Below, in pieces: positions 1,516 to 12,798 of a stretch of 55,449 nt of DNA. Positions within the stretch are counted from its first letter, which is position 1; each line of letters opens with the position of its first letter. The translations under genes and the position numbers were made by a program. Below the pieces are notes generated by a model. It did not search any database. It was not told the DNA's origin and saw only the letters and a list, made by a program, of their open reading frames with translations. This DNA comes from an uncultured delta proteobacterium (GTDB lineage: Bacteria > Desulfobacterota > WTBG01 > CAIYCZ01 > CAIRTM01). The stretch is taken from the NCBI GenBank assembly GCA_903911225.1, contig CAIWCT010000453.1:1-55449 (forward strand), in the 5' to 3' direction.

Positions 1516-1947
1516 CTAGTATTCCCCTTTACATAGCAACGTGTCCCTGCATGCGCAACAGGCGCCGCGGGATGATTAGATAGCATGAATCAGGAGAGCA
1601 TACACTAGTATAAATTTGCAAACCTTTCTATAAAAAAATTCATACAAAGCACCGGTGAACGGCCTTATTTGATTTTACGGGTCGCCGCAGCTACAACAAC
1701 AACCATTAATGCCATAAATATTCATCTGTTTTTTTCGGGCAGCAAGCCGCACTTTAACAGATTGCACGTATACCCGACGCCTTGCCGCCCTTGTCAGAAC
1801 AGGGACAGAGTTATTGTGCAATAGGCATGGTCTATTTATCCCTTGATTTGCATAGATTTTTCTAATATTATCACTTTTCAAACAATGACATTGCACCATC
1901 AAAGAGTCCCTTTTTAGCTCTCTACTCTACACCACAAGGAGGTATCC

Positions 1948-2814
1948 ATGCTATCCTGTACAATTGTGAAGAAAATAATGCTTTTGGTTCTTGCCGGCTG
2001 TTGTATCTCTGCCGTGTGCTGCCAGTCATTCTGCCATGCTGCAGAGGGAAAAACCATTGAAGTCTTTGCCGGGGCTGCTTCAAAGCCGGCCACAGAGGAA
2101 GCGGCACAGCTTTTTGAAAAAAAGACTGGCATTCAGGTTCTTTTGCATTTCGGCGGCTCAGGGAAAATGCTTGCCGATATGAAACTGACCGGCAAGGGTG
2201 ACATCTTTTTCCCCGGCTCATCTGATTTTATGGAGCTTGCAAAAAAAGAGGGGCTTGTGCAGCCGCAAACAGAAGAGCGGCTTATTTATCTGCTTCCATC
2301 CATTAACGTGCCCAGGGGCAACCCTAAAAAAATACAAGCACTGGCGGATCTCGCCCGGCCGGGCGTGAGCATTGGCATAGGGCGGCCCGACACCGTCTGC
2401 GTGGGGCTCTATGCTGTTGAGATATTGGAGAAAAACGGTCTGGCCGCGACGGTGCGGCCCAATATCAAAACAAATGTGGAGTCTTGCGAAAAGGTAGCCC
2501 AGCTTGCAGCCCTCGGCATGGTCGATGCTGTTCTTGGCTGGAGCGTGTTTTCAAGCTGGAATCCCGATAAGATCGAGACGATAGCGCTTAAGCCCGCCGA
2601 GATACCCCGTATCGGCTATATCCCTATTGCGCTAAGCAGCGCTCCAAAAAACCCTGATGCAGCCCGGCAGTTTATAGCTTTTTTGAAGTCCGATGAGGGC
2701 CGGGCAATATTTAAAAAATGGGGCTATTTGGTGACAGAAGCTGATGCCAGAAAGTACGTACTGCCTGCAACGCCGGTCGGCGGAACCTGGGAGCTGCCGC
2801 AGTCGTGGCGCTGA
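1948..2814 (+). CDS. modA: Molybdate/tungstate ABC transporter substrate-binding protein
   Basis: Signal peptide, FAGAASKP, FGGSGKM, GDIFFPGS, VPRGNPKKI; RBS AAGGAGG. Confidence 0.88.
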   Translation: MLSCTIVKKIMLLVLAGCCISAVCCQSFCHAAEGKTIEVFAGAASKPATEEAAQLFEKKTGIQVLLHFGGSGKMLADMKLTGKGDIFFPGSSDFMELAKKEGLVQPQTEERLIYLLPSINVPRGNPKKIQALADLARPGVSIGIGRPDTVCVGLYAVEILEKNGLAATVRPNIKTNVESCEKVAQLAALGMVDAVLGWSVFSSWNPDKIETIALKPAEIPRIGYIPIALSSAPKNPDAARQFIAFLKSDEGRAIFKKWGYLVTEADARKYVLPATPVGGTWELPQSWR

Positions 2815-3599
2815 AAAATTCTTTTACCCTGTGCTTGATAGCCGCCGTTGCGGTTGCCGCAATGCTGGTGGTGGCGATTCTGGCATCCCAACTCTACTAT
2901 ATCGGACCGGCAAATCCCCTGCAGGCTCTTCTGCAGCCGGATGTGCGCAGCGCCATACTGCTGAGCCTGTATACGGCGACCGCGGCCTCGGGCCTGGGGC
3001 TTGCTCTGGCAATCCCTGCGGCCTATTTTCTTGCGCGCGCGAATTTGCCAGGCAAATCCATACTTGATGCTCTTCTTGATGTTCCGATTATCATGTCGCC
3101 GCTTGCTTTGGGCACTTCGCTGCTGCTGTTTTTTCGGACCCCGCCCGGTCAGTGGATTGAAGCAAATTTCATGGAATTTGTTTTTCAAGTGCCGGGCATC
3201 ATTCTTGCGCAGTTTTTTCTGGCCCTTGCCCTGTCAGTGCGGGTGCTCAAGGCAAGCTTTGAAGCGGTAGACATACGCTGCGAGCAGGTAGCGCGGTTTC
3301 TCGGTTGCACGCCCTGGCAGACATTTTGCCGGGTGACGCTGCCCATTGCTCGCAAAGGGATACTTGCGGCCTTCATTCTCTCCTGGGCCCGGTGCCTTGG
3401 CGATTTTGGCGCAGCGGTGACTCTGGCGGGAGCCGTTAAGGGCAAAACAGAGACCATACCCGTGAGCATTTACCTGAATATGGCCTCGGTTAATATCGAT
3501 AAGGCTGTGGCCCTGATGCTGCTCACAACACTTCTTGCCGTAGCCGTGCTGCTGGCCATTCGGGTTCTTGCAGCTGAAGGAGGCGCGGGCAGAGCATGA
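2805..3599 (+). CDS. modB: Molybdate/tungstate ABC transporter permease
   Basis: Multi-TM, LDVPIIMSP, EAA-like loop (EQVARFLG), SWARCLGDFGA; overlaps modA. Confidence 0.88.
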   Translation: MALKNSFTLCLIAAVAVAAMLVVAILASQLYYIGPANPLQALLQPDVRSAILLSLYTATAASGLGLALAIPAAYFLARANLPGKSILDALLDVPIIMSPLALGTSLLLFFRTPPGQWIEANFMEFVFQVPGIILAQFFLALALSVRVLKASFEAVDIRCEQVARFLGCTPWQTFCRVTLPIARKGILAAFILSWARCLGDFGAAVTLAGAVKGKTETIPVSIYLNMASVNIDKAVALMLLTTLLAVAVLLAIRVLAAEGGAGRA

Positions 3600-4753
3600 T
3601 CCGCATCGAAAACATGTCCGCCCGGTTTGGGACCTTCTGGCTCAGGAATATCAACCTGAACATCAAGCGCGGTGATTTTTTTCTGCTGCTGGGGCCGACA
3701 GGTGCCGGCAAGTCGCTGCTGCTGGAAACGATACTCGGTATAAAAAAGCCCGACAGGGGAAAGATACTGCTGGATGGACAGGACATCAGCAGACTGCCGC
3801 CCGAAGAGCGCGATATTGCCTATGTGCCCCAGGACCTCGGGCTTTTCCCCAATATGAGCCCGCTTGACAATATTCTTTTCGGCGCCCGGATTCGAAAAAT
3901 CGACAGCGAAACCATCCGTAGGCGGCTCGACTATCTGATCGAACATTTAAACCTGGGCCCGGTTATATCGCGCCCGAGCATTTTTACGCTCAGCGGCGGC
4001 GAAAAACAGCGTATCGCCTTTGCCCGGGCCATTATCACCAAACCCCGCGTGCTGTTTCTTGATGAACCGTTTTCAGCCCTTGATTCCTATATCAAGCGCG
4101 AGGTGCAGTTTCAGCTCAAGCGGCTGCAAAAGACTATCGACCTGACCATCTTTCATGTCACCCATGATCAGGAGGAGGCATTCCTCATGGCCGACTATAT
4201 GGCCGTCATGATCGGCGGCGCGATCGAGCAGCATGACCGGCCGGAGCAGTGCTACCGGGAGCCTGCCAATGAAACAGTGGCAAGCTTCCTGCTCATGCAA
4301 AACATTTTCGATGCCGACGTGCTGTCGGTTGATCACGAGTTGTCATGCGTTACCTGTGCGGCAAACGGCATCCGCTTTGAAATTATGAATCATAATCAGC
4401 TGCAGGTCGGAGCGAGCGTGAAGCTCGGGATCAGGCCCGAGGAGATCCTGTTTCTGACGCCGGGAAAACCGTTCAAGCCGGAAGTGCGGCACAATACCTT
4501 CCGCATGCGCGTTGAGGCGCTCTATAATCTCGGGAACAGGCGCCTCGTGCGGCTGGTGTTCGCCGATAGCGGCAGAACCCTGGATGCGACAGTCCATTAC
4601 CGTATCGGCAGAAGGTTTGAGCTGGCCGAGGGCCAGGAGACCTATATTCATCTTCGGCCACAGAGCTTCTGCCTGCTATCGGGCCATGCCCGCGGCAACG
4701 GTCAGGGAACTTCCAGCCTGGGGGGGGCAGCAGCAAATGAAAAGCTCGACTAG
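3596..4753 (+). CDS. modC: Molybdate/tungstate ABC transporter ATP-binding protein with TOBE-like C-terminus
   Basis: GPTGAGKS, LSGGEKQR, LFLDEPFS, HVTHD; ATGA overlap with the permease. Confidence 0.85.
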   Translation: MIRIENMSARFGTFWLRNINLNIKRGDFFLLLGPTGAGKSLLLETILGIKKPDRGKILLDGQDISRLPPEERDIAYVPQDLGLFPNMSPLDNILFGARIRKIDSETIRRRLDYLIEHLNLGPVISRPSIFTLSGGEKQRIAFARAIITKPRVLFLDEPFSALDSYIKREVQFQLKRLQKTIDLTIFHVTHDQEEAFLMADYMAVMIGGAIEQHDRPEQCYREPANETVASFLLMQNIFDADVLSVDHELSCVTCAANGIRFEIMNHNQLQVGASVKLGIRPEEILFLTPGKPFKPEVRHNTFRMRVEALYNLGNRRLVRLVFADSGRTLDATVHYRIGRRFELAEGQETYIHLRPQSFCLLSGHARGNGQGTSSLGGAAANEKLD

Positions 4754-5975
4754 CTATACGCAAGATCACCTGCATCGCTGGCATGTGCTGCAAATGGCAA
4801 TTGACGGTCATATTACCCTTCTTGAGGCAAGCAACCGGCTTGGCATAAGCTACCGGCAGGCCAAGCGGCTAAAAAGCGCCGTTGTCGTAAGCGGGCTTGC
4901 GGGGCTGCAGCACGGCAACCGCGGCAAGCGCTCATCGCGGGCCATAAACGATCATGAGCGCACGCGTATTCTGCATCTTGCCCGCACGCAGTATGCAGAC
5001 CTTAATGATACGCGGCTTACCGAGCGCCTGAAAAGCGAGCACGGCATCGGGCTCTCCCGCGAAACCATTAGAAGAATACTGCGCAGCGGCGGCATTAAAA
5101 GCGCCGCTGCCGGCAGCGGCGACATTCGCCTGCCCTGCTATACCAGCCAGGGGATGATGGTGCTGTGGGGCGGCATTGAAAAAAACTGGTTTGGAGATAC
5201 AAAAAGCTGCTTTATTGCCGCCGTCGATACGGCAACGCTGCGCTGTCTCGCAGCCCGCTTTTTTGACAGTCAAAGCACGCAGGGTTATCTCTGGCTCATG
5301 CGGGAAATCATGCGCACCTACGGCCTGCCCCGGGCTTTCTGCCAGCACAGCGGCAGCGCCGTGCGCCGCAGCGACAGCTCCTGGACTCTTGAGGAGGAAC
5401 TGCGCGGTGAGCGCGACCCCAGCCAGGTCGAGCGGGCGCTCCAGGCTTCGGGGATATCTCATTATCTTGAAAGCAAGCGCCGTATCATGAGCATGCCCGC
5501 CCTGTTTGAGTCCTTTCTTGCCGGACAGTTTGAGGGCCGGGAAATAACCGATAGTAAAGCGGCAAACAAACTGCTTGCGCAGGGCGTCATAGCGGCGTTC
5601 AACCGCACTCATGCCTGTCAGCCCCTCAACAGTGAGTCGGCCTGGCGGCCGGTGCCTGCGGGTGCTGATATTGAGCGCATCTGCAGTTTTTTTTATTCGG
5701 CAATCGTGCAGGCCAATAATAAAATCATGCTGGGTGAAATCACCATAGATGTGCCCCCCGGCAAGCAGCGCATTTCCTATGCGCGCACGCCGGTTGAAGT
5801 ACGGCAGCTGCTTGATGGTTCCTGGCGGGTGTATTATCAAAACAATATTATTGCGACCCACGACCCCACCCCGGTGCGGGAGCCTGTGCCGTGCCGAGGG
5901 CAGCGGCGCAGCAGCGATTCGGGCGCCATGAGCTGGATGTATGCCGTGCTGGATCACGGCAGCAGCTGTGATTAA
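4737..5975 (+). CDS. ISNCY/IS1202-like transposase derivative: intact ORF and HTH, degenerate DDE core
   Basis: LGISYRQAKRLK...GLQHGNRG, LSRETIRRIL, VDTAT, YGLPRAF, VEVRQLLDGSWRVYY match the family layout; the catalytic D/D/E positions are replaced; ATG at 4737 after a G-rich RBS, overlapping the end of modC. Confidence 0.8.
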   Translation: MKSSTSYTQDHLHRWHVLQMAIDGHITLLEASNRLGISYRQAKRLKSAVVVSGLAGLQHGNRGKRSSRAINDHERTRILHLARTQYADLNDTRLTERLKSEHGIGLSRETIRRILRSGGIKSAAAGSGDIRLPCYTSQGMMVLWGGIEKNWFGDTKSCFIAAVDTATLRCLAARFFDSQSTQGYLWLMREIMRTYGLPRAFCQHSGSAVRRSDSSWTLEEELRGERDPSQVERALQASGISHYLESKRRIMSMPALFESFLAGQFEGREITDSKAANKLLAQGVIAAFNRTHACQPLNSESAWRPVPAGADIERICSFFYSAIVQANNKIMLGEITIDVPPGKQRISYARTPVEVRQLLDGSWRVYYQNNIIATHDPTPVREPVPCRGQRRSSDSGAMSWMYAVLDHGSSCD

Positions 5976-5990
5976 TTCGGCTGCTCACAA

Positions 5991-6036
5991 AGGTGACATT
6001 TTTATGTTGCCGCAGTTGCAGTGCTGACCGTTGACA
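5991..6036 (+). mobile_element. Possible remnant right end of an ISNCY/IS1202-like element
   Basis: AGGTGACATTTTTATGTTGC...TTGACA just after the transposase stop resembles my recollection of family termini; no matching left end seen. Confidence 0.4.
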
Positions 6037-6071
6037 GTGCACGAGCACGAGGCTATATGAATGTTTATATA
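6031..6071 (+). promoter_or_regulatory. Candidate sigma70 promoter overlapped by a ModE-like box
   Basis: TTGACA 6031-6036, 17 nt, TATATG (imperfect -10); TATAT-N7-TATAT at 6054-6070 fits the E. coli ModE core TATAT-N7-TAYAT. Confidence 0.45.
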
Positions 6072-6133
6072 TAAACTGCGTTTTTCAGGCGCAGATAAAT
6101 GATTAAAGGAAGCAAAAGGCGCACCAGATACAT

Positions 6134-6234
6134 ATTCTACAAGCCGTCCGTTCTAAAAACCCCTGCGGTTGCGAACAGAAGGCCCATGGGTATGGCAGCT
6201 AAGCGCCATACCTCCGGTGGCGAAAAGGAGAAAT
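6134..6234 (+). ncRNA. Candidate Moco/tungsten-cofactor riboswitch aptamer (divergent, short form)
   Basis: TTCTACAAGCC..CTAAAA..TGCGGT..GGC..GGGTATGGC-loop-GCCATACCTCCGGT..AAAGGAG follows the order of Moco motif elements; lies in the 5' leader of a molybdoenzyme operon. Confidence 0.5.
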
Positions 6235-6258
6235 TGGTTCGTGCATGTAAACAAACGA

Positions 6259-6300
6259 ACCGTTCCTGTGTCGTCACGGGGTTGGTGTTTTTGTTATTTA
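6259..6300 (+). terminator. Leader terminator/attenuator hairpin (candidate expression platform)
   Basis: CCTGTG-TCGT-CACGGG stem followed by a T-rich run; competing hairpin GGTTCGT/ACGAACC upstream. Confidence 0.4.
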
Positions 6301-6421
6301 ATTGTTAATGAGCGATAAAAACCATAAACAAAAGCTGCGAAAGGAGGTGGTCGGGACAGAAAGCCCTTAATCTGGTAGAAACCGAGTAAAGCTTAAACTA
6401 ATTAATATGGAGGTTTAACTT

Positions 6422-7291
6422 ATGGCCAGTAGTCGAATACTGCCGGAATTCGAGCTGCTGATACCCCAGAGCATAAAGGAAGCTGTTGATTTGCTTGGCA
6501 AATTAAAGAACAAGGCTTCCGTGATGGCTGGTGGTACCGATGTAGTCATCTCGTGCACCAAGGGATTTGGCAGCCCCAATGTTATCAGTCTTGCTGAAAT
6601 CCCCGCTCTTGACTATGTCGAGTACGACAGCAAAAGTGGGCTGCGCATCGGCGCAATGGCGACCCTGCAACAGGTTGCCGATAATGCCGACGTGCAGAAA
6701 AGATATCCCGCTCTGTGGAAATCAGCAGCCATTAACGGCACACCCCAGACACGCAATATGGGCACCGTTGTTGGCAATATCATGCGCGCTTCCCCCTCAG
6801 GGGACTGCATTTGCGCGATCCTCGCGATCGGCGGCAAAGTGGTTCTTCGCGGATCCAAGGGCAAGCGGGAAGTCAGCATTGATGACTTTTACATTAAATA
6901 TCGGGAAACGGCTTGCAAAAGCGATGAGCTTGCCGTTGAAATCAAAATTCCAGCTCCTGCCGCAGGCTCCTGTAACGCCTTTGCACGCATGACCCGCACC
7001 ACCCTTGATCTTTCCAAGGTCAATGTCGCCGTGCGCCTGGACATGTCGGGCAAGACCGTGAAGGAAGCGCGTGTTGCCATCGGCGCAGTAGCGCCGACCA
7101 CCATTCGGCTGAAAAAAGTCGAGGCGCTCCTGAAAGGCAAGCAGATTACCGATGATGTTCTCCAGAAGATTGTTGAAACAGTCCCCACGGAAATTAAGCC
7201 CATTGATGATGTTCGCTCCACGGCAGAGTACCGCCGCGATGTAGCAGGCATCATGGTCAAGCGCATAATTCTTGAAGCACTGGGAAAGTAA
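6422..7291 (+). CDS. Xanthine dehydrogenase family FAD-binding (medium) subunit
   Basis: AGGTD, RIGAMATL, PQTRNMGTVVGNI, PIDDVRSTAEYR. Confidence 0.93.
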   Translation: MASSRILPEFELLIPQSIKEAVDLLGKLKNKASVMAGGTDVVISCTKGFGSPNVISLAEIPALDYVEYDSKSGLRIGAMATLQQVADNADVQKRYPALWKSAAINGTPQTRNMGTVVGNIMRASPSGDCICAILAIGGKVVLRGSKGKREVSIDDFYIKYRETACKSDELAVEIKIPAPAAGSCNAFARMTRTTLDLSKVNVAVRLDMSGKTVKEARVAIGAVAPTTIRLKKVEALLKGKQITDDVLQKIVETVPTEIKPIDDVRSTAEYRRDVAGIMVKRIILEALGK

Positions 7292-7334
7292 TTAACGGAC
7301 TATTTCACAACAAAAACTCAAGGAGATATACATC

Positions 7335-7889
7335 ATGAAAAAACGAGCAATAACTCTTACGATAAATGGGGAGGAGTATAATTTGAACGTACCCGTTCAT
7401 TATACCCTTCTTCAGGTCATGAGGGATCAGCTGAACCTGACTGACGTTAAATACGGCTGCGGCCGCGGTGAGTGCGGCGCCTGCACGGTGCTGCTGGATG
7501 TGGGAAAGGGCGGCATGCAATGCAAGCCCACCGATAAAAAAACAACCTACTGCACCATGTCGCAGAGCAAACGTAAACCCATTCTTGCCTGTATAGCTCT
7601 TGCCGCCACCATGGATGGCAAAAGCATTACGACGGTCGCAGGCCTTGCCCAAAACGGCGATCTGCACCCCGTCCAGAAGGCCTTTGTCGATGAAAGCGCC
7701 ATACAATGCGGCTTCTGCACGCCGGGCATGGTTCTCAAGGCAGTCTCAATTCTTGAGAAAAATCCCAAGCCCTCGGAAGAGGAAATCCGGAACGGTCTGG
7801 AAGGCAATATCTGCCGCTGTACCGGATATGTAAAAATTGTCAAAGCTGTTCAGGTGGCTAGTAAAAAAACAGCCACCGGCAAGCGATAG
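7335..7889 (+). CDS. Xanthine dehydrogenase family 2x[2Fe-2S] (small) subunit
   Basis: KYGCGRGECGACTVL, QCGFCTPG, GNICRCTGY. Confidence 0.95.
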   Translation: MKKRAITLTINGEEYNLNVPVHYTLLQVMRDQLNLTDVKYGCGRGECGACTVLLDVGKGGMQCKPTDKKTTYCTMSQSKRKPILACIALAATMDGKSITTVAGLAQNGDLHPVQKAFVDESAIQCGFCTPGMVLKAVSILEKNPKPSEEEIRNGLEGNICRCTGYVKIVKAVQVASKKTATGKR

Positions 7890-7904
7890 GAAAGGAGGAA
7901 CAGC

Positions 7905-10289
7905 ATGGCAGAATCCGTTATTGGAAAACGAATACCCAAAGTTGACTCCCGTGAGAAGGTAACCGGCCAGGCTATGTATGCCGGCGATTATCGCATGCCC
8001 GGCATGTATTACGGCAAAGTGGTCCGCTGCTGGGAATATGCTTCTGCAAAAGTCAAGAAACTTGATTTTACCGAAGCACTGAAGATGCCCGGTGTCGTAA
8101 AAATTCTCGGCCCCGATGATGTTACTAAAAAACCCTACAACACGACGGTTATGAAGCTGCTTGTGCCTGAAATTTTCGGCGAAGTATTCGGCGAAATTGC
8201 AGACCTTAACATCTTCAATAAAATCGTCAAGCATCAGGGCGATGCCATTTGTGGCGTTATCGCACGGACTGAAGAAGCAGCAGAGCGCGCAGCAGACAAG
8301 ATCAAGGTCACCTATGAACCCCTGCCCGTTCTCATGACCTGCGAGGAATCAAAGGCCGAAGGCGCCAAGAAGAACGGCTATCTGTTCACGCCGCTCAAGC
8401 CCGGCAACAAAGCTTTTGATCTGCCCGCATCGTTCTTCCCGAACCAGCGCTATGGCTGGAACGACAAAGACGGCAAAACGGCGATGGAGCTGTTTGATAA
8501 GTGCGATTATGTGATCGAAGATACGTATTATGTTCCCAAGCAGAAGCAGTGCCAGATGGAAAACCATTCCTATGTGGCCCATTATGATGAGCGCGGTCGT
8601 CTCAACATCTGGACTTCAACCCAGATGGCCAAGCCCGTGCAGGTGCTGATTGCAGAGCTGTTCGAGCTGCCCCTGACCCGTGTTCGCCTGGTGCAGACCA
8701 TTGTGGGCGGCGGTTTTGGCGTTCGTCTGGGCATGATCGGCGAGCCCCATTGCTGCGCCATGGCCATGGCAGTGCCCGGCCATCCTGTTCGCATGGAGTT
8801 TCTGCGCGAGGAAGACTGGGTTGCTTCCGAGACCCGTTATCCCGGCCATATCTGGTTTAAATGCGGCTTCAAGAAAGACGGCTCCCCTATCGCACTGGAT
8901 TCAATGTATATGGCCCGCAAAGGCGGCTATTATACCCATGGCTCCGGGCCGCCCTTCTGCTTTGCCGCTTTTATTCACGGTATGTATAAATGGCAGGCCA
9001 TGGGTTGCCAGACCGAAGGCTATTTCACCAATGAAGTTCCCACTGGCGCGTACCGCGGCTACGGCAACCCGCAGCTGGCCTTCTCCGGCGAGCAGATGAT
9101 TACGCGTATGTGCAAAGAGCTCGGCCTTGACGAGCTTGAGTGGCGCAAGAAGTGGCATAAGGGCATCGGCGACGAGACCTGGCTCAAAGGCGTGACCTTC
9201 GCCTCCGATGGTCTTAACGACTGCCTTGATGTTGCAGCCAAAGAGAGCGGCTGGTATGAAAAGAAAAAGAAGTATGCCAAGCAGACCGGCGTCAAACGCC
9301 GCGGTTTGGGCGTTTCCGTCATGCAGCATACCTCCGGCGCTTTCCCCATGCTGCTTGAGCATTCCGTCTGCACGGCAAAGCTGAATGAGGACTGCACGGT
9401 TGAACTGATGCAGCAGATTTCCGATCTCGGTACCGGCGGCCATACCGCTATAACGCAGATGGCGGCTGAAACCCTCGGGTTCCCGATGGAGGATATCCAT
9501 CTGCGGTCCGGCGACTCCGATATGTGCGGTTTCGACATCGGCGCTCATGCAAGCCGAACCGTTTACTGCGCAGGCCCGGCAACGATTGAAGCCTGCGAAA
9601 GCGTAAAGAAGCAGCTGCTTGAGCGTGCTGCCCAGCTTCTGGAAGCCAATGTGAAGGATCTTCAAATGAAAGACAAGATCATAAGCGTTAAAGGCAATCC
9701 CCAGAAGTCGATCAGCGCGATAAAGATCGCCAAAGAAGGCGTGTACAACTACATCGATGCGGCCACCGGAAAGACCATCGGTATTCCGGGCCAGATCCAG
9801 GGCTACTCGAGCTTCTTTGCTAAGCATTGCTCCCCGCCCTTCGGCGCCTGCATCTCCGAAGTCGAAGTGGACACCGAGACCGGCGAGATAAAAGTGCTGA
9901 AGCTCGTGAATGCTCATGATATCGGCAAAGCCATCCATCCGCCTTCGGTTGAAGGTCAGTTGGAAGGCGGCGCTCAGCAGGGTCTAGGTTTTGTGCTCAC
10001 TGAAGAGTACGCCTATGACAAAATGGGCCGCGTGCTGAACAATGATTTCACCGATTACAAGATGCTTGGCCCCTCGGATATGCCCGATGCCAAGATCATT
10101 CTGATTGAAAGCGCTCCGGATCCCATCGGTCCGATGGGTGCCAAGAGCTGTGGTGAATCAGCTCTCATGGGTCCGATTGGCTCGGTTGCCAATGCAATTT
10201 TCGATGCCATTGGTATCCAGTTTAAAGAAGCCCCCATCACGCCTGAAAAGGTGCTGAAGGCTATCAAGGAACAGGGCCTTCAGAAGTAA
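7905..10289 (+). CDS. Xanthine dehydrogenase family molybdopterin-binding (large) subunit, substrate unknown
   Basis: KVTGQAMY, VGGGFG, AYRGYGNPQ, DLGTG, HASRT, GQLEGGAQQGLG, GAKSCGE. Confidence 0.95.
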   Translation: MAESVIGKRIPKVDSREKVTGQAMYAGDYRMPGMYYGKVVRCWEYASAKVKKLDFTEALKMPGVVKILGPDDVTKKPYNTTVMKLLVPEIFGEVFGEIADLNIFNKIVKHQGDAICGVIARTEEAAERAADKIKVTYEPLPVLMTCEESKAEGAKKNGYLFTPLKPGNKAFDLPASFFPNQRYGWNDKDGKTAMELFDKCDYVIEDTYYVPKQKQCQMENHSYVAHYDERGRLNIWTSTQMAKPVQVLIAELFELPLTRVRLVQTIVGGGFGVRLGMIGEPHCCAMAMAVPGHPVRMEFLREEDWVASETRYPGHIWFKCGFKKDGSPIALDSMYMARKGGYYTHGSGPPFCFAAFIHGMYKWQAMGCQTEGYFTNEVPTGAYRGYGNPQLAFSGEQMITRMCKELGLDELEWRKKWHKGIGDETWLKGVTFASDGLNDCLDVAAKESGWYEKKKKYAKQTGVKRRGLGVSVMQHTSGAFPMLLEHSVCTAKLNEDCTVELMQQISDLGTGGHTAITQMAAETLGFPMEDIHLRSGDSDMCGFDIGAHASRTVYCAGPATIEACESVKKQLLERAAQLLEANVKDLQMKDKIISVKGNPQKSISAIKIAKEGVYNYIDAATGKTIGIPGQIQGYSSFFAKHCSPPFGACISEVEVDTETGEIKVLKLVNAHDIGKAIHPPSVEGQLEGGAQQGLGFVLTEEYAYDKMGRVLNNDFTDYKMLGPSDMPDAKIILIESAPDPIGPMGAKSCGESALMGPIGSVANAIFDAIGIQFKEAPITPEKVLKAIKEQGLQK

Positions 10290-10555: not shown

Positions 10556-10918
10556 ATGAATTGTATTCCCGTTAAAACCGGTGAAGGAAAAAACGCACAG
10601 GTCTATGCCCATTTCGGCAGTACACCCTATTTTACGATTTATGATACGGATGCGCAGTTCATCGCAGTCATTGATAACGCCAACAGCCATCATGAGCACG
10701 GCGCGTGCAATCCCATTGCCGCGCTGCAGGGCAAAACGATCGATATTGTGGTCACCGGCGGCATGGGCTCACGGGCAGTCATGATGTTCGACACAACGGG
10801 CATCAAAGTGTTCAAGTCCGTATCCGGGTCGGTTGAAAATATCATCAAAACCTTCGGCGCGCAGGACATTGAAGAGCTGACTGCGCAGAATGCCTGTGCC
10901 TCGCATGGTTGCAATTAA
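10556..10918 (+). CDS. NifB/NifX family (MTH1175-like) protein
   Basis: HFGSTPYF, HHEHGAC, GGMGSRA, C-terminal CASHGC. Confidence 0.88.
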   Translation: MNCIPVKTGEGKNAQVYAHFGSTPYFTIYDTDAQFIAVIDNANSHHEHGACNPIAALQGKTIDIVVTGGMGSRAVMMFDTTGIKVFKSVSGSVENIIKTFGAQDIEELTAQNACASHGCN

Positions 10919-12260
10919 AAAAATTCCGCGAAAAAACCCGCAACTTGAGACTATTCTGGACAGCATAGCCGATGGGGTATTCACTATCAATCTTGACCGG
11001 GAAATAACCTCCTTCAACCGATCTGCTGAGCGTATTACAGGCGTCAAATGCGAGCAGGCCCTCGGACAGAAATGTTTCGACGTTTTTCACGCTAATATCT
11101 GCCAAGGCCGCTGCGCCATGGAAAAAACCCTCAAAACCGGCAAATCAATCATTGATCTGCCGGTTTCAATTTTGAACATCAGGGGGAAAACCGTTCCCAT
11201 AAGCGTGAGTACAGCCGTGCTGAAAAACGACAAGGGCGAAACCGTTGGTGGAGTGGAAACGTTTCGCGACCTGTCGGACATCGAGGATATGCGCAGGGAG
11301 CTGGGCCGCCAATACTGCTTCGACGATATCATCAGCAAGAACCATGAAATAGTGAAACTGTTCGGGGTGTTGCCTGACATCGCTCAAAGCGCAAGTACCG
11401 TGCTCATACAGGGGGCCAGTGGTACGGGCAAAGAGCTGTTTGCCCGGGCCATCCACAACTGCAGTGCCCGGGCAAAAGGTCCGTATGTGGCGATTAACTG
11501 TGGGGCGCTGCCAGCGGCGCTGCTTGAATCGGAATTGTTCGGCTACTGCAGAGGCGCCTTCACCGATGCAAAGGCGGACAAGCCGGGCAGGTTTGCCCGC
11601 GCCCGGGGCGGCACCCTGTTTCTGGATGAAATCGGGGATTTGCCGCTGTCCATGCAGGTAAAGCTGCTACGCGTGCTGCAGGAGGGTGAATACGAGCCCC
11701 TGGGAGCCACAAAACCACTGAAATCCGATGCGCGCATCATCGCCGCCACCAACCGGGATCTTGCCACTCTTATGGCCGAAGGAAAATTTCGGGAAGATCT
11801 GTATTACCGCATCAATGTCATAAAACTTTGCCTGCCATCCCTGGCAGAGCGGCGGGAAGACATACCTTTGCTGGTGGAGCATTTTATCAACCGGTTCAAT
11901 GTGCGCACCGGGAAACGTATTGCAGGAGTTTCAGGGGAGGTTTTGCGGCTTCTTATGCGGTATGAGTTCCCCGGCAATATCAGAGAGCTAGAAAATATCA
12001 TCGAGCATGCCTTTGTGCTTTGCCGCGCAACTCTCATCACTATTGAACACCTCCCTGCTGACATGCAGGATAAAAGTGCTTCTCATGCGGATGTACCCAG
12101 CTCTGAAGACGCATCCTGTTTTAAAAAGGCCGAGGCACGGGTGATTCTTGATACTCTCAAGAAATATGGCAATCACCGGGGGAATACGGCCCGCGAACTG
12201 GGTATCGACAAAGCGACGCTCTGGCGCAAGATGAAGCGGTTGGGCATTAAAAATCTCTAG
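10905..12260 (+). CDS. OrpR-like sigma54 activator (Cys-PAS, AAA+, Fis HTH)
   Basis: PAS with C-x8-C-x3-C (CFDVFHANICQGRC), GASGTGKE, GAFTDA, LFLDEIGD, TLWRKMK. Confidence 0.9.
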   Translation: MVAIKKIPRKNPQLETILDSIADGVFTINLDREITSFNRSAERITGVKCEQALGQKCFDVFHANICQGRCAMEKTLKTGKSIIDLPVSILNIRGKTVPISVSTAVLKNDKGETVGGVETFRDLSDIEDMRRELGRQYCFDDIISKNHEIVKLFGVLPDIAQSASTVLIQGASGTGKELFARAIHNCSARAKGPYVAINCGALPAALLESELFGYCRGAFTDAKADKPGRFARARGGTLFLDEIGDLPLSMQVKLLRVLQEGEYEPLGATKPLKSDARIIAATNRDLATLMAEGKFREDLYYRINVIKLCLPSLAERREDIPLLVEHFINRFNVRTGKRIAGVSGEVLRLLMRYEFPGNIRELENIIEHAFVLCRATLITIEHLPADMQDKSASHADVPSSEDASCFKKAEARVILDTLKKYGNHRGNTARELGIDKATLWRKMKRLGIKNL

Positions 12261-12408: not shown

Positions 12409-12798
12409 ATGAAAAGAAAAATCGCCATTCCCCTGTTCGGCACACGCATTTCGCCGCATTTCACCTATGCCGACATGGCGCTACTGGTTGACATTGAAAA
12501 CGGCGAAGTAGCGCAGTCGCGGGAAATAGCACTGGGGCAGGCAGACGAGCTGCAGCGCATACAGTATCTTAAGTCCCTTGAGATCAACACGCTCATCTGC
12601 GGTGGCATATCAAATATTGCCGAGCGCATGCTTGCCGAACAAGCAATAGATGTCATCTCCTGGGTGACGGGAGAGGCCCGTGACGCGCTGGAGCTGTTTA
12701 TATGCAAACGGCTGACGTCGGGCGCCTGGCTGTGCCCCAAGCGGCATCGTTGCCGCAGCGGCCAGTCCAGAAACAAAAAACCAGTCACGTTTTCGTGA
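12409..12798 (+). CDS. NifB/NifX family protein
   Basis: KIAIPLFGTRISPHF, LICGGIS. Confidence 0.82.
   Translation: MKRKIAIPLFGTRISPHFTYADMALLVDIENGEVAQSREIALGQADELQRIQYLKSLEINTLICGGISNIAERMLAEQAIDVISWVTGEARDALELFICKRLTSGAWLCPKRHRCRSGQSRNKKPVTFS

Follow-up and report, generated by a model that had tools for sequence, protein, structure and literature searches.

We describe here a gene derived from an insertion sequence (IS), located at positions 4737–5975 of the forward strand in a 55,449-nt contig of an uncultured delta proteobacterium (CAIWCT010000453.1, GenBank assembly GCA_903911225.1); the whole of this stretch was analysed and is referred to below as the window. The 412-aa open reading frame (ORF) is a homologue of ISNCY-type transposases in which all three catalytic residues of the D-D-E triad have been replaced, and it is under purifying selection with host-like constraint rather than decaying as an IS. 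It is nested within active transposases and found as single-copy orthologues at a fixed position, and on comparative sequence grounds it very probably represents a domesticated ISNCY-type DDE transposase. With the retained IS-end sites as its operators, the protein would, with fair probability, act as a local transcription factor for molybdenum genes. The overall explanation that we favour, and consider reasonably likely, is that of a domesticated transposase acting as a local regulator at these retained sites.

The 412-aa protein and its catalytic positions

Translation of the window gives a frame with zero internal stops that overlaps the end of the upstream ABC ATPase (modC-like) ORF, which terminates at 4753, by 17 nt; an initial annotation of this DNA had also described an unbroken frame overlapping modC. 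That annotation also considered the helix–turn–helix (HTH) and C-terminal segments to be intact, and both are: the protein consists of HTH domains, an RNase H-like core and a C-terminal beta-barrel, the first recognized by Pfam and the other two present in an AlphaFold2 model. Pfam matches on the 412-aa protein are restricted to N-terminal HTH families, with no transposase catalytic domain at E ≤ 1. The NCBIfam family NF033594 (transpos_ISNCY_2) matches residues 17–369 with an E-value of 5e-53 and 180.5 bits, which does not reach the curated (equivalog) cut-off of 250 bits. Identity to DDE-bearing members of the family is 40–44%.

Alignment with the DDE-bearing relatives showed that VLWDGS has become VLWGGI (D to G145), IYQD has become FCQH (D to H204) and KGRVER has become KRRIMS (E to M251), with a four-residue deletion immediately before the third motif. 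The columns of G145, H204 and M251 hold D-D-E in 171 of 221 full-length homologues, and aligned against this set the window protein does not have the triad. All three substitutions noted in the initial annotation are therefore real, although the consensus strings given for the first two motifs, 'QxDGS' and 'YxD', were imprecise.

The AlphaFold2 model (predicted local distance difference test, pLDDT, 85.3) keeps the full architecture, including the RNase H-like fold, and places residue 145 on beta-1 and residue 204 just past beta-4 of the core, secondary-structure positions that agree with the triad columns. The top Foldseek matches of the modelled fold are the transpososome subunits TnsB, IstA and MuA. 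A sequence-profile search of the PDB with the homologue alignment matched TnsB only weakly, in the HTH (E 9e-4), and otherwise gave sub-threshold pieces that were unusable for mapping the triad. Besides the lost residues, new ones have become fixed: C170 and C316 are invariant across the two related clades described below (A and B) and are L or I in active relatives, and clade A alone has C202 and H204 as invariant or nearly invariant residues.

Copy number, ancestry and selection

The host assembly (G000; 455 contigs, 85.5% complete) holds a single copy of the dead gene. Near-identical copies are absent from it, and the only other match is a bona fide ISNCY_2 gene, 25% identical, on contig C358. 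That gene encodes 418 aa, scores 322.7 bits (above the NF033594 cut-off) and occupies positions 205–1461 of the minus strand of its 2.8-kb contig (locus L002). As to ends, no flanking inverted repeat was found around the ORF, and a second end motif oriented as a left end is absent from the 55-kb window. Over the 300 nt that precede the dead gene, the best left-end-oriented score was −8.1 bits, compared to 27–30 bits in active IS, and none of the 10 syntenic copies scanned, including those that keep D-D-E, has a left-end-oriented site within that distance. The earlier remark that no left end is visible thus agrees with inverted-repeat, motif and position weight matrix (PWM) scans alike, which recovered only right-end-oriented motifs, at 1801–1821 and, as a right-end remnant, at 5991–6017. 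Instead of the two inverted ends and multiple locations of a mobile element, the gene shows one copy in its own genome and the same position in 14 of 14 genomes.

These are the genomes with readable gene context (G000–G005, G007, G009–G013, G016 and G020), all from uncultured Thermodesulfobacteriota, in a collection with 21 genomes of the order to which the host belongs; for the metagenomic clade A proteins (P0002–P0030), context was read at loci L110–L112. In every one of the 14, a member of the dead-gene clade lies directly upstream of, and on the same strand as, xdhFAD, the FAD-subunit gene of an xdh-like molybdoenzyme operon, and in 10 a ModABC-type transporter lies directly upstream of it. 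The gene had originally been taken as the last one of the molybdate transporter operon; it does overlap modC in the window, but the more conserved link is that to the downstream xdh operon. Of 16 genomes from the host family, 12 have the gene, and exactly these 12 have xdhFAD; the remaining four, 91–100% complete, have neither. There is one copy per genome except in G012, which has two paralogues, one from each clade. The non-syntenic relatives (L035–L053) are two-ended IS copies in unrelated contexts. Most of the 80 relative loci listed come from two Bryobacterales metagenome-assembled genomes, with many copies of a 27%-identical relative.

Trees were built from all 221 full-length homologue rows with FastTree and from 54 of those rows with IQ-TREE, and both group every xdh-linked copy with its metagenomic kin in a single clade. 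In the FastTree tree this clade has 47 rows, includes the window protein, is supported at 99 and sits within the DDE-bearing transposases; the IQ-TREE supports are 98 for clades A and B together, 100 for each of them and 95 for the DDE-bearing sister group. Clade A comprises 37 rows, the window protein among them, all with G-H/Y/Q-x at the triad. Clade B comprises 10 rows, five that keep D-D-E and five that read YDK, YPE, YET, HSD and YEA. Because the pattern is common to all of clade A and the losses in clade B differ from it, at least two losses of the triad must have followed the origin of the joint clade, and since syntenic orthologues in other genera still have D-D-E, domestication would have preceded these losses.

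Selection on the gene was estimated against an 86%-identical orthologue present on two near-identical metagenome contigs (L110 and L111), which were counted as one comparison. The ratio of non-synonymous to synonymous substitution rates (dN/dS) was 0.17 by NG86 and 0.11 by YN00, with dS of 0.49–0.66, and was at the same level as that of modA and modC (0.12) in the same comparison. By domain, dN/dS was 0.24 for the HTH region, 0.11 for the dead core and 0.09 for the beta-barrel, and the clade B pair G010/G016 gave 0.17. Syntenic orthologues are thus under purifying selection (dN/dS < 1) rather than in neutral decay, and open frames of 409–430 aa are retained down to 37% identity across seven genera. 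In four public DNA runs from freshwater or lake samples, one of which may be the source sample, contigs span both junctions of the gene, and none skips it.

Retained IS-end sites and the candidate regulatory pair

Both ends of active relatives bear a tandem pair of 25-nt repeats, GGGGACATTTT...GCAGTT and then GGGGACATATTGAC...GCTTAAACA at the terminus. In the ends of the active ISNCY relatives at L036–L039, L049 and L059, the outer repeat holds a TTGAC about 12 nt from the terminus, which could be an outward −35 element. A PWM was derived from 43 such repeat units, taken from 13 active loci only, and used to scan both strands of the syntenic loci. Its best match on either strand of the 55-kb window, at 5991–6012 (13.9 bits), begins 16 nt past the stop codon of the dead gene, belongs to a right-end transposase-binding repeat remnant at 5991–6017 (+; AGGTGACATTTTTATGTTGCCGCAGTT) and is unique in the window. 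This post-stop site is conserved in the syntenic loci of both clades. A second IS-end-like site, at 1801–1821 (+; AGGGACAGAGTTATTGTGCAA), was identified by alignment with L110 and precedes the promoter of the transporter operon. What is retained of the end motif amounts to about 22 nt and corresponds to the transposase-binding repeats at the ends of active relatives.

Each site stands at a set distance from a promoter. The sigma-70-like promoter of the transporter operon (1843–1871, +), identified by a consensus scan, consists of TTGATT at 1843–1848 and TATTAT at 1866–1871, separated by 17 nt, and the module is also kept in L110, L021 and L023. The putative promoter of the xdh-like operon (6031–6059, +), read directly from the sequence, consists of TTGACA at 6031–6036 and TATATG at 6054–6059, again 17 nt apart, and its TTGACA/TTGACT position is conserved among relatives. 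The spacing from site to −35 is 42 nt at the transporter, counted from 1801, and 39 nt at xdh, counted from 5992, and relatives show the same spacing. The same-genus loci L021–L024 have a near-perfect unit upstream of the transporter operon, which is their top PWM match (21.5–28.3 bits), and at L110 and L111 the counterpart of 1801–1821 ranks top as well (16.8 bits). Altogether, at 15 of 16 loci the top match lies either just past the dead gene (or ahead of xdh) or just ahead of the gene's own operon, always in the orientation of the gene; at L026, the one exception, the post-gene site comes in fourth place.

The two window sites lie in direct orientation 4.2 kb apart and bracket the unit made up of the transporter and the gene. 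An IS with passenger genes bounded by them was considered and rejected because both are oriented as right ends. Possibly the sites go back to a composite, now decayed, in which two IS copies in direct orientation flanked the transporter. At L028 of G012, the genome with both paralogues, IS-end-like sites occur at 2882, 8358, 10371 and 10413 (10.5–18.4 bits), ahead of xdhFAD, ahead of a second gene for an xdh Mo subunit and within the divergent stretch that separates the paralogues.

From these data we infer the following course of events. An ancestral ISNCY copy would have become fixed directly upstream of the xdh-like operon in an ancestor of the host's family (Thermodesulfobacteriota), in a single ancient event, and would have lost its left end and, because of that, its mobility. 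The catalytic residues would have gone later and at least two times, by D to G/H changes in clade A and D to Y/H changes in part of clade B, and selection would have kept the HTH region and the entire fold, together with copies of the ~22-nt end repeat. On the most economical view, the present protein may still bind the retained repeats through its HTH region and modulate two adjacent promoters, that of the transporter operon, which holds the gene itself, and that of the xdh operon with its molybdenum cofactor (Moco) riboswitch. The location of the sites well upstream of the −35 elements favours an activator. Its own synthesis would be tied to molybdenum status, the gene overlapping or being packed behind modC in the window and close kin and lying behind Moco riboswitches in relatives. 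That the protein binds the sites and acts on transcription, or responds to an effector at all, is in this scheme a prediction from sequence. The initial annotation had suggested domestication as a DNA-binding regulator: the domestication part is supported, and the regulator part, now backed by IS-end-like sites before both promoters, is still an extrapolation.

Several observations count against this regulatory reading or narrow it. The −10 element of the xdh promoter in the window, TATATG, is poor and was missed by the consensus scan, and the conserved sites could in part be promoter UP-like elements. When all of G000 was scanned with a PWM made from domesticated sites, the two window sites scored 27.1 and 23.3 bits, top ranks that follow by construction since both were in the training set; the best untrained match reached 19.6 bits and no further convincing site was found in the whole assembly, so that the action of the protein, if it is a regulator, must be strictly local. 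Among public RNA runs, none was found that contains the locus (window 1700–6500). Riboswitches between the gene and xdh are missing from three of 13 relatives' loci (G010, G011 and G012). As five of 10 clade B members keep D-D-E, catalysis is still possible in those members. The copies in G003 and G020 are interrupted, as are the xdh and mod genes of both assemblies. Finally, in genus g7 (G010, locus L143, and G016, locus L144) xdhFAD is 84–87% identical to that of the window genus and the xdh genes overall are 80–91% identical to those of the window, as close as in same-genus genomes, whereas the transposase-derived gene belongs to clade B, is 35–39% identical to that of the window (37–38% at L143 and L144) and keeps D-D-E. 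The two trees thus disagree for g7 and the pair has not simply been co-inherited, which suggests that the xdh operon was exchanged or that paralogues were lost differentially.

Some of these points also bear on other explanations. That the gene is an inert IS relic, its frame surviving by chance or through harmless read-through from modC, would fit a protein that scores below the family cut-off with zero catalytic residues, the two interrupted copies and the absence of the gene from four of 16 family genomes. We regard it as extremely improbable, and disfavour it, given an overall dN/dS of 0.11–0.17 with every domain constrained and long frames kept open in distant genera; furthermore, the absence of the gene coincides exactly with that of xdh, and the interrupted copies come from assemblies in which xdh and mod genes are broken as well. 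The synteny might alternatively reflect independent insertions of a target-specific IS beside Moco-riboswitch promoters. Strong target specificity is described for some ISNCY/IS1202-type elements (PMC10132070), and the incongruent xdh and gene phylogenies of g7 and the five syntenic copies with D-D-E could be accommodated in this way. Yet the syntenic copies form one clade (98–99 support) without any non-syntenic IS copy, a left end is found in 0 of 10 of them, each genome has one copy (two paralogues in G012) and most copies are without the triad, and the two-ended non-syntenic relatives sit in unrelated contexts. Repeated insertion is accordingly very unlikely, and both it and the relic reading are poorly supported.

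A stronger competitor, although in our judgement an unlikely one, is that the gene was domesticated as something other than a classical transcription factor, with an architectural role (synapsis, or looping or insulation of the transporter cassette) or a role through protein or RNA contacts, for instance in Moco delivery or riboswitch-linked control. Transposases with the TnsB/IstA/MuA-like fold assemble on paired ends, and the two directly oriented sites bracket exactly the transporter-plus-gene unit; the core and barrel are also more constrained than the HTH region, and the new invariant residues C170 and C316 lie outside the latter. However, each site lies 39–42 nt from a −35 element, which fits promoter-linked action, and sites precede xdh even in G010, G012 and G016, whose gene copies do not follow a transporter. 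We therefore prefer local regulation at the retained sites.

Related systems and the molybdenum neighbourhood

The window gene resembles ISNCY IS of the NF033594 type in its homology over residues 17–369, in sharing the HTH, RNase H-like and beta-barrel architecture and in a downstream motif that matches their end repeats. It differs from them in scoring below the cut-off, in lacking D-D-E and a left end, and in its single copy, fixed synteny and host-like constraint. Genes of this clade should consequently not carry the label 'ISNCY family transposase'.

Transposases becoming regulators is a textbook theme in eukaryotes. The transcription factors FHY3/FAR1, for example, derive from MULE transposases (PMC13306707). 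They offer a parallel, in that a DDE transposase became immobile (and in the window case catalytically dead as well) and was kept for sequence-specific DNA binding, with sites coming from transposon ends. The window case differs in being bacterial and embedded in an operon, in having its sites beside the gene itself and before two adjacent operons, and in that its function is predicted. Among prokaryotes, TldR proteins are TnpB-derived nuclease-dead repressors (PMC13622181), and TnpA-REP/RAYT are likewise domesticated transposon proteins (PMC8266576). Both are bacterial transposon proteins turned host factors, and TldR is in addition catalytically dead and acts on transcription. Their ancestors, however, are RNA-guided TnpB or HUH Y1 transposases and no DDE IS transposase, and they find their targets via guide RNA or REP hairpins rather than retained IS-end repeats. 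An abstract-level search of the literature found no published bacterial DDE IS transposase domesticated as a regulator, and no description of the dead-gene family.

This one bacterial family displays several stages of what appears to be domestication, namely fixed copies with D-D-E, at least two independent losses of the triad and paralogues side by side in one genome, and at each stage IS-end repeats precede molybdenum-gene promoters. It thereby offers a testable model for how the protein and DNA-site pair of a selfish element may become a host regulatory module, and gives the Moco riboswitch regulon of organisms without ModE a candidate regulator that is a protein.

ModE is the molybdate-responsive regulator of modABC. 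We propose a comparable niche for the dead transposase, that of a DNA-binding protein at molybdate transporter and molybdoenzyme promoters, although the two have no homology and neither the ModE N-terminal domain (TIGR00637) nor Mop/TOBE domains were detected in the 412-aa protein. A search for ModE (TIGR00637) was negative in all 17 family genomes, G000 included.

Upstream of the dead gene, the transporter (1948–4753, +; Pfam and NCBIfam) is encoded by modA-, modB- and modC-like genes at 1948–2814, 2805–3599 and 3596–4753. ModA scores 77.7 bits, the permease is nearest to TIGR01581 and the ATPase is WtpC-like with a C-terminal extension. It is 83–93% identical to the transporter of L110/L111 and differs in type from the canonical ModABC found at the same position in same-genus genomes (29–44% identity), whose ModA type was not found in G000. 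The same-genus transporter at L021 (9562–11872), for example, is a canonical, riboswitch-controlled ModABC. Despite this difference in transporter type, the promoter and IS-end-like site upstream are homologous between the window and the same-genus loci.

Downstream, the xdh/cox-like molybdoenzyme genes (6422–10289, +; Pfam and NCBIfam) encode FAD (6422–7291), 2Fe-2S (7335–7889) and Mo (7905–10289) subunits. They are preceded by a Moco riboswitch-like aptamer at 6125–6246 (+; RF01055), whose score of 28.8 bits is below the gathering score of 36, and by a terminator-like hairpin (6264–6281) followed by a T-run (6264–6290, +), which is conserved in the alignment of relatives and probably serves as the riboswitch's expression platform. 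Among 13 loci of relatives, 10 have a Moco riboswitch above the gathering score (44–74.5 bits) between the gene and xdh, and the terminator-like hairpin after it is conserved. The operon containing the gene is itself mostly preceded by one or two Moco riboswitches in relatives; no riboswitch was detected upstream of the window transporter. The riboswitch immediately precedes the gene in G016, the clade B paralogue of G012 follows a riboswitch and a Moco-biosynthesis-domain gene in the same orientation, and the order in G013 is two riboswitches, a Moco-biosynthesis gene, modABC and the gene. Tandem pairs of Moco aptamers (44–78 bits) were seen upstream of relatives' transporter and Moco-biosynthesis operons at L021 (11889–12175) and L023 (5905–6191), with further pairs at L022 (12693–12977), L030 (14618–14903) and L145 (3680–3990).

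A more ambitious version of the favoured reading, which we put forward tentatively and think rather unlikely, is that the transposase and its own terminal repeats were jointly co-opted as a regulatory circuit of the Moco economy in a lineage without ModE. The former active-site region, remodelled yet under constraint (C170/C316 in the two clades, C202/H204 in clade A), might then serve as an effector- or metal-sensing pocket, and the protein would take over from the Moco riboswitches, since those of the transporter are gone from the window lineage and that of xdh is below threshold.

Immediately 3' of the xdh-like genes, the window encodes two small proteins with a Nitro_FeMo-Co domain (10556–10918 and 12409–12798). 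Between them lies the gene for a PAS-domain sigma-54 enhancer-binding protein (10890–12260), itself a further candidate regulator at this locus.

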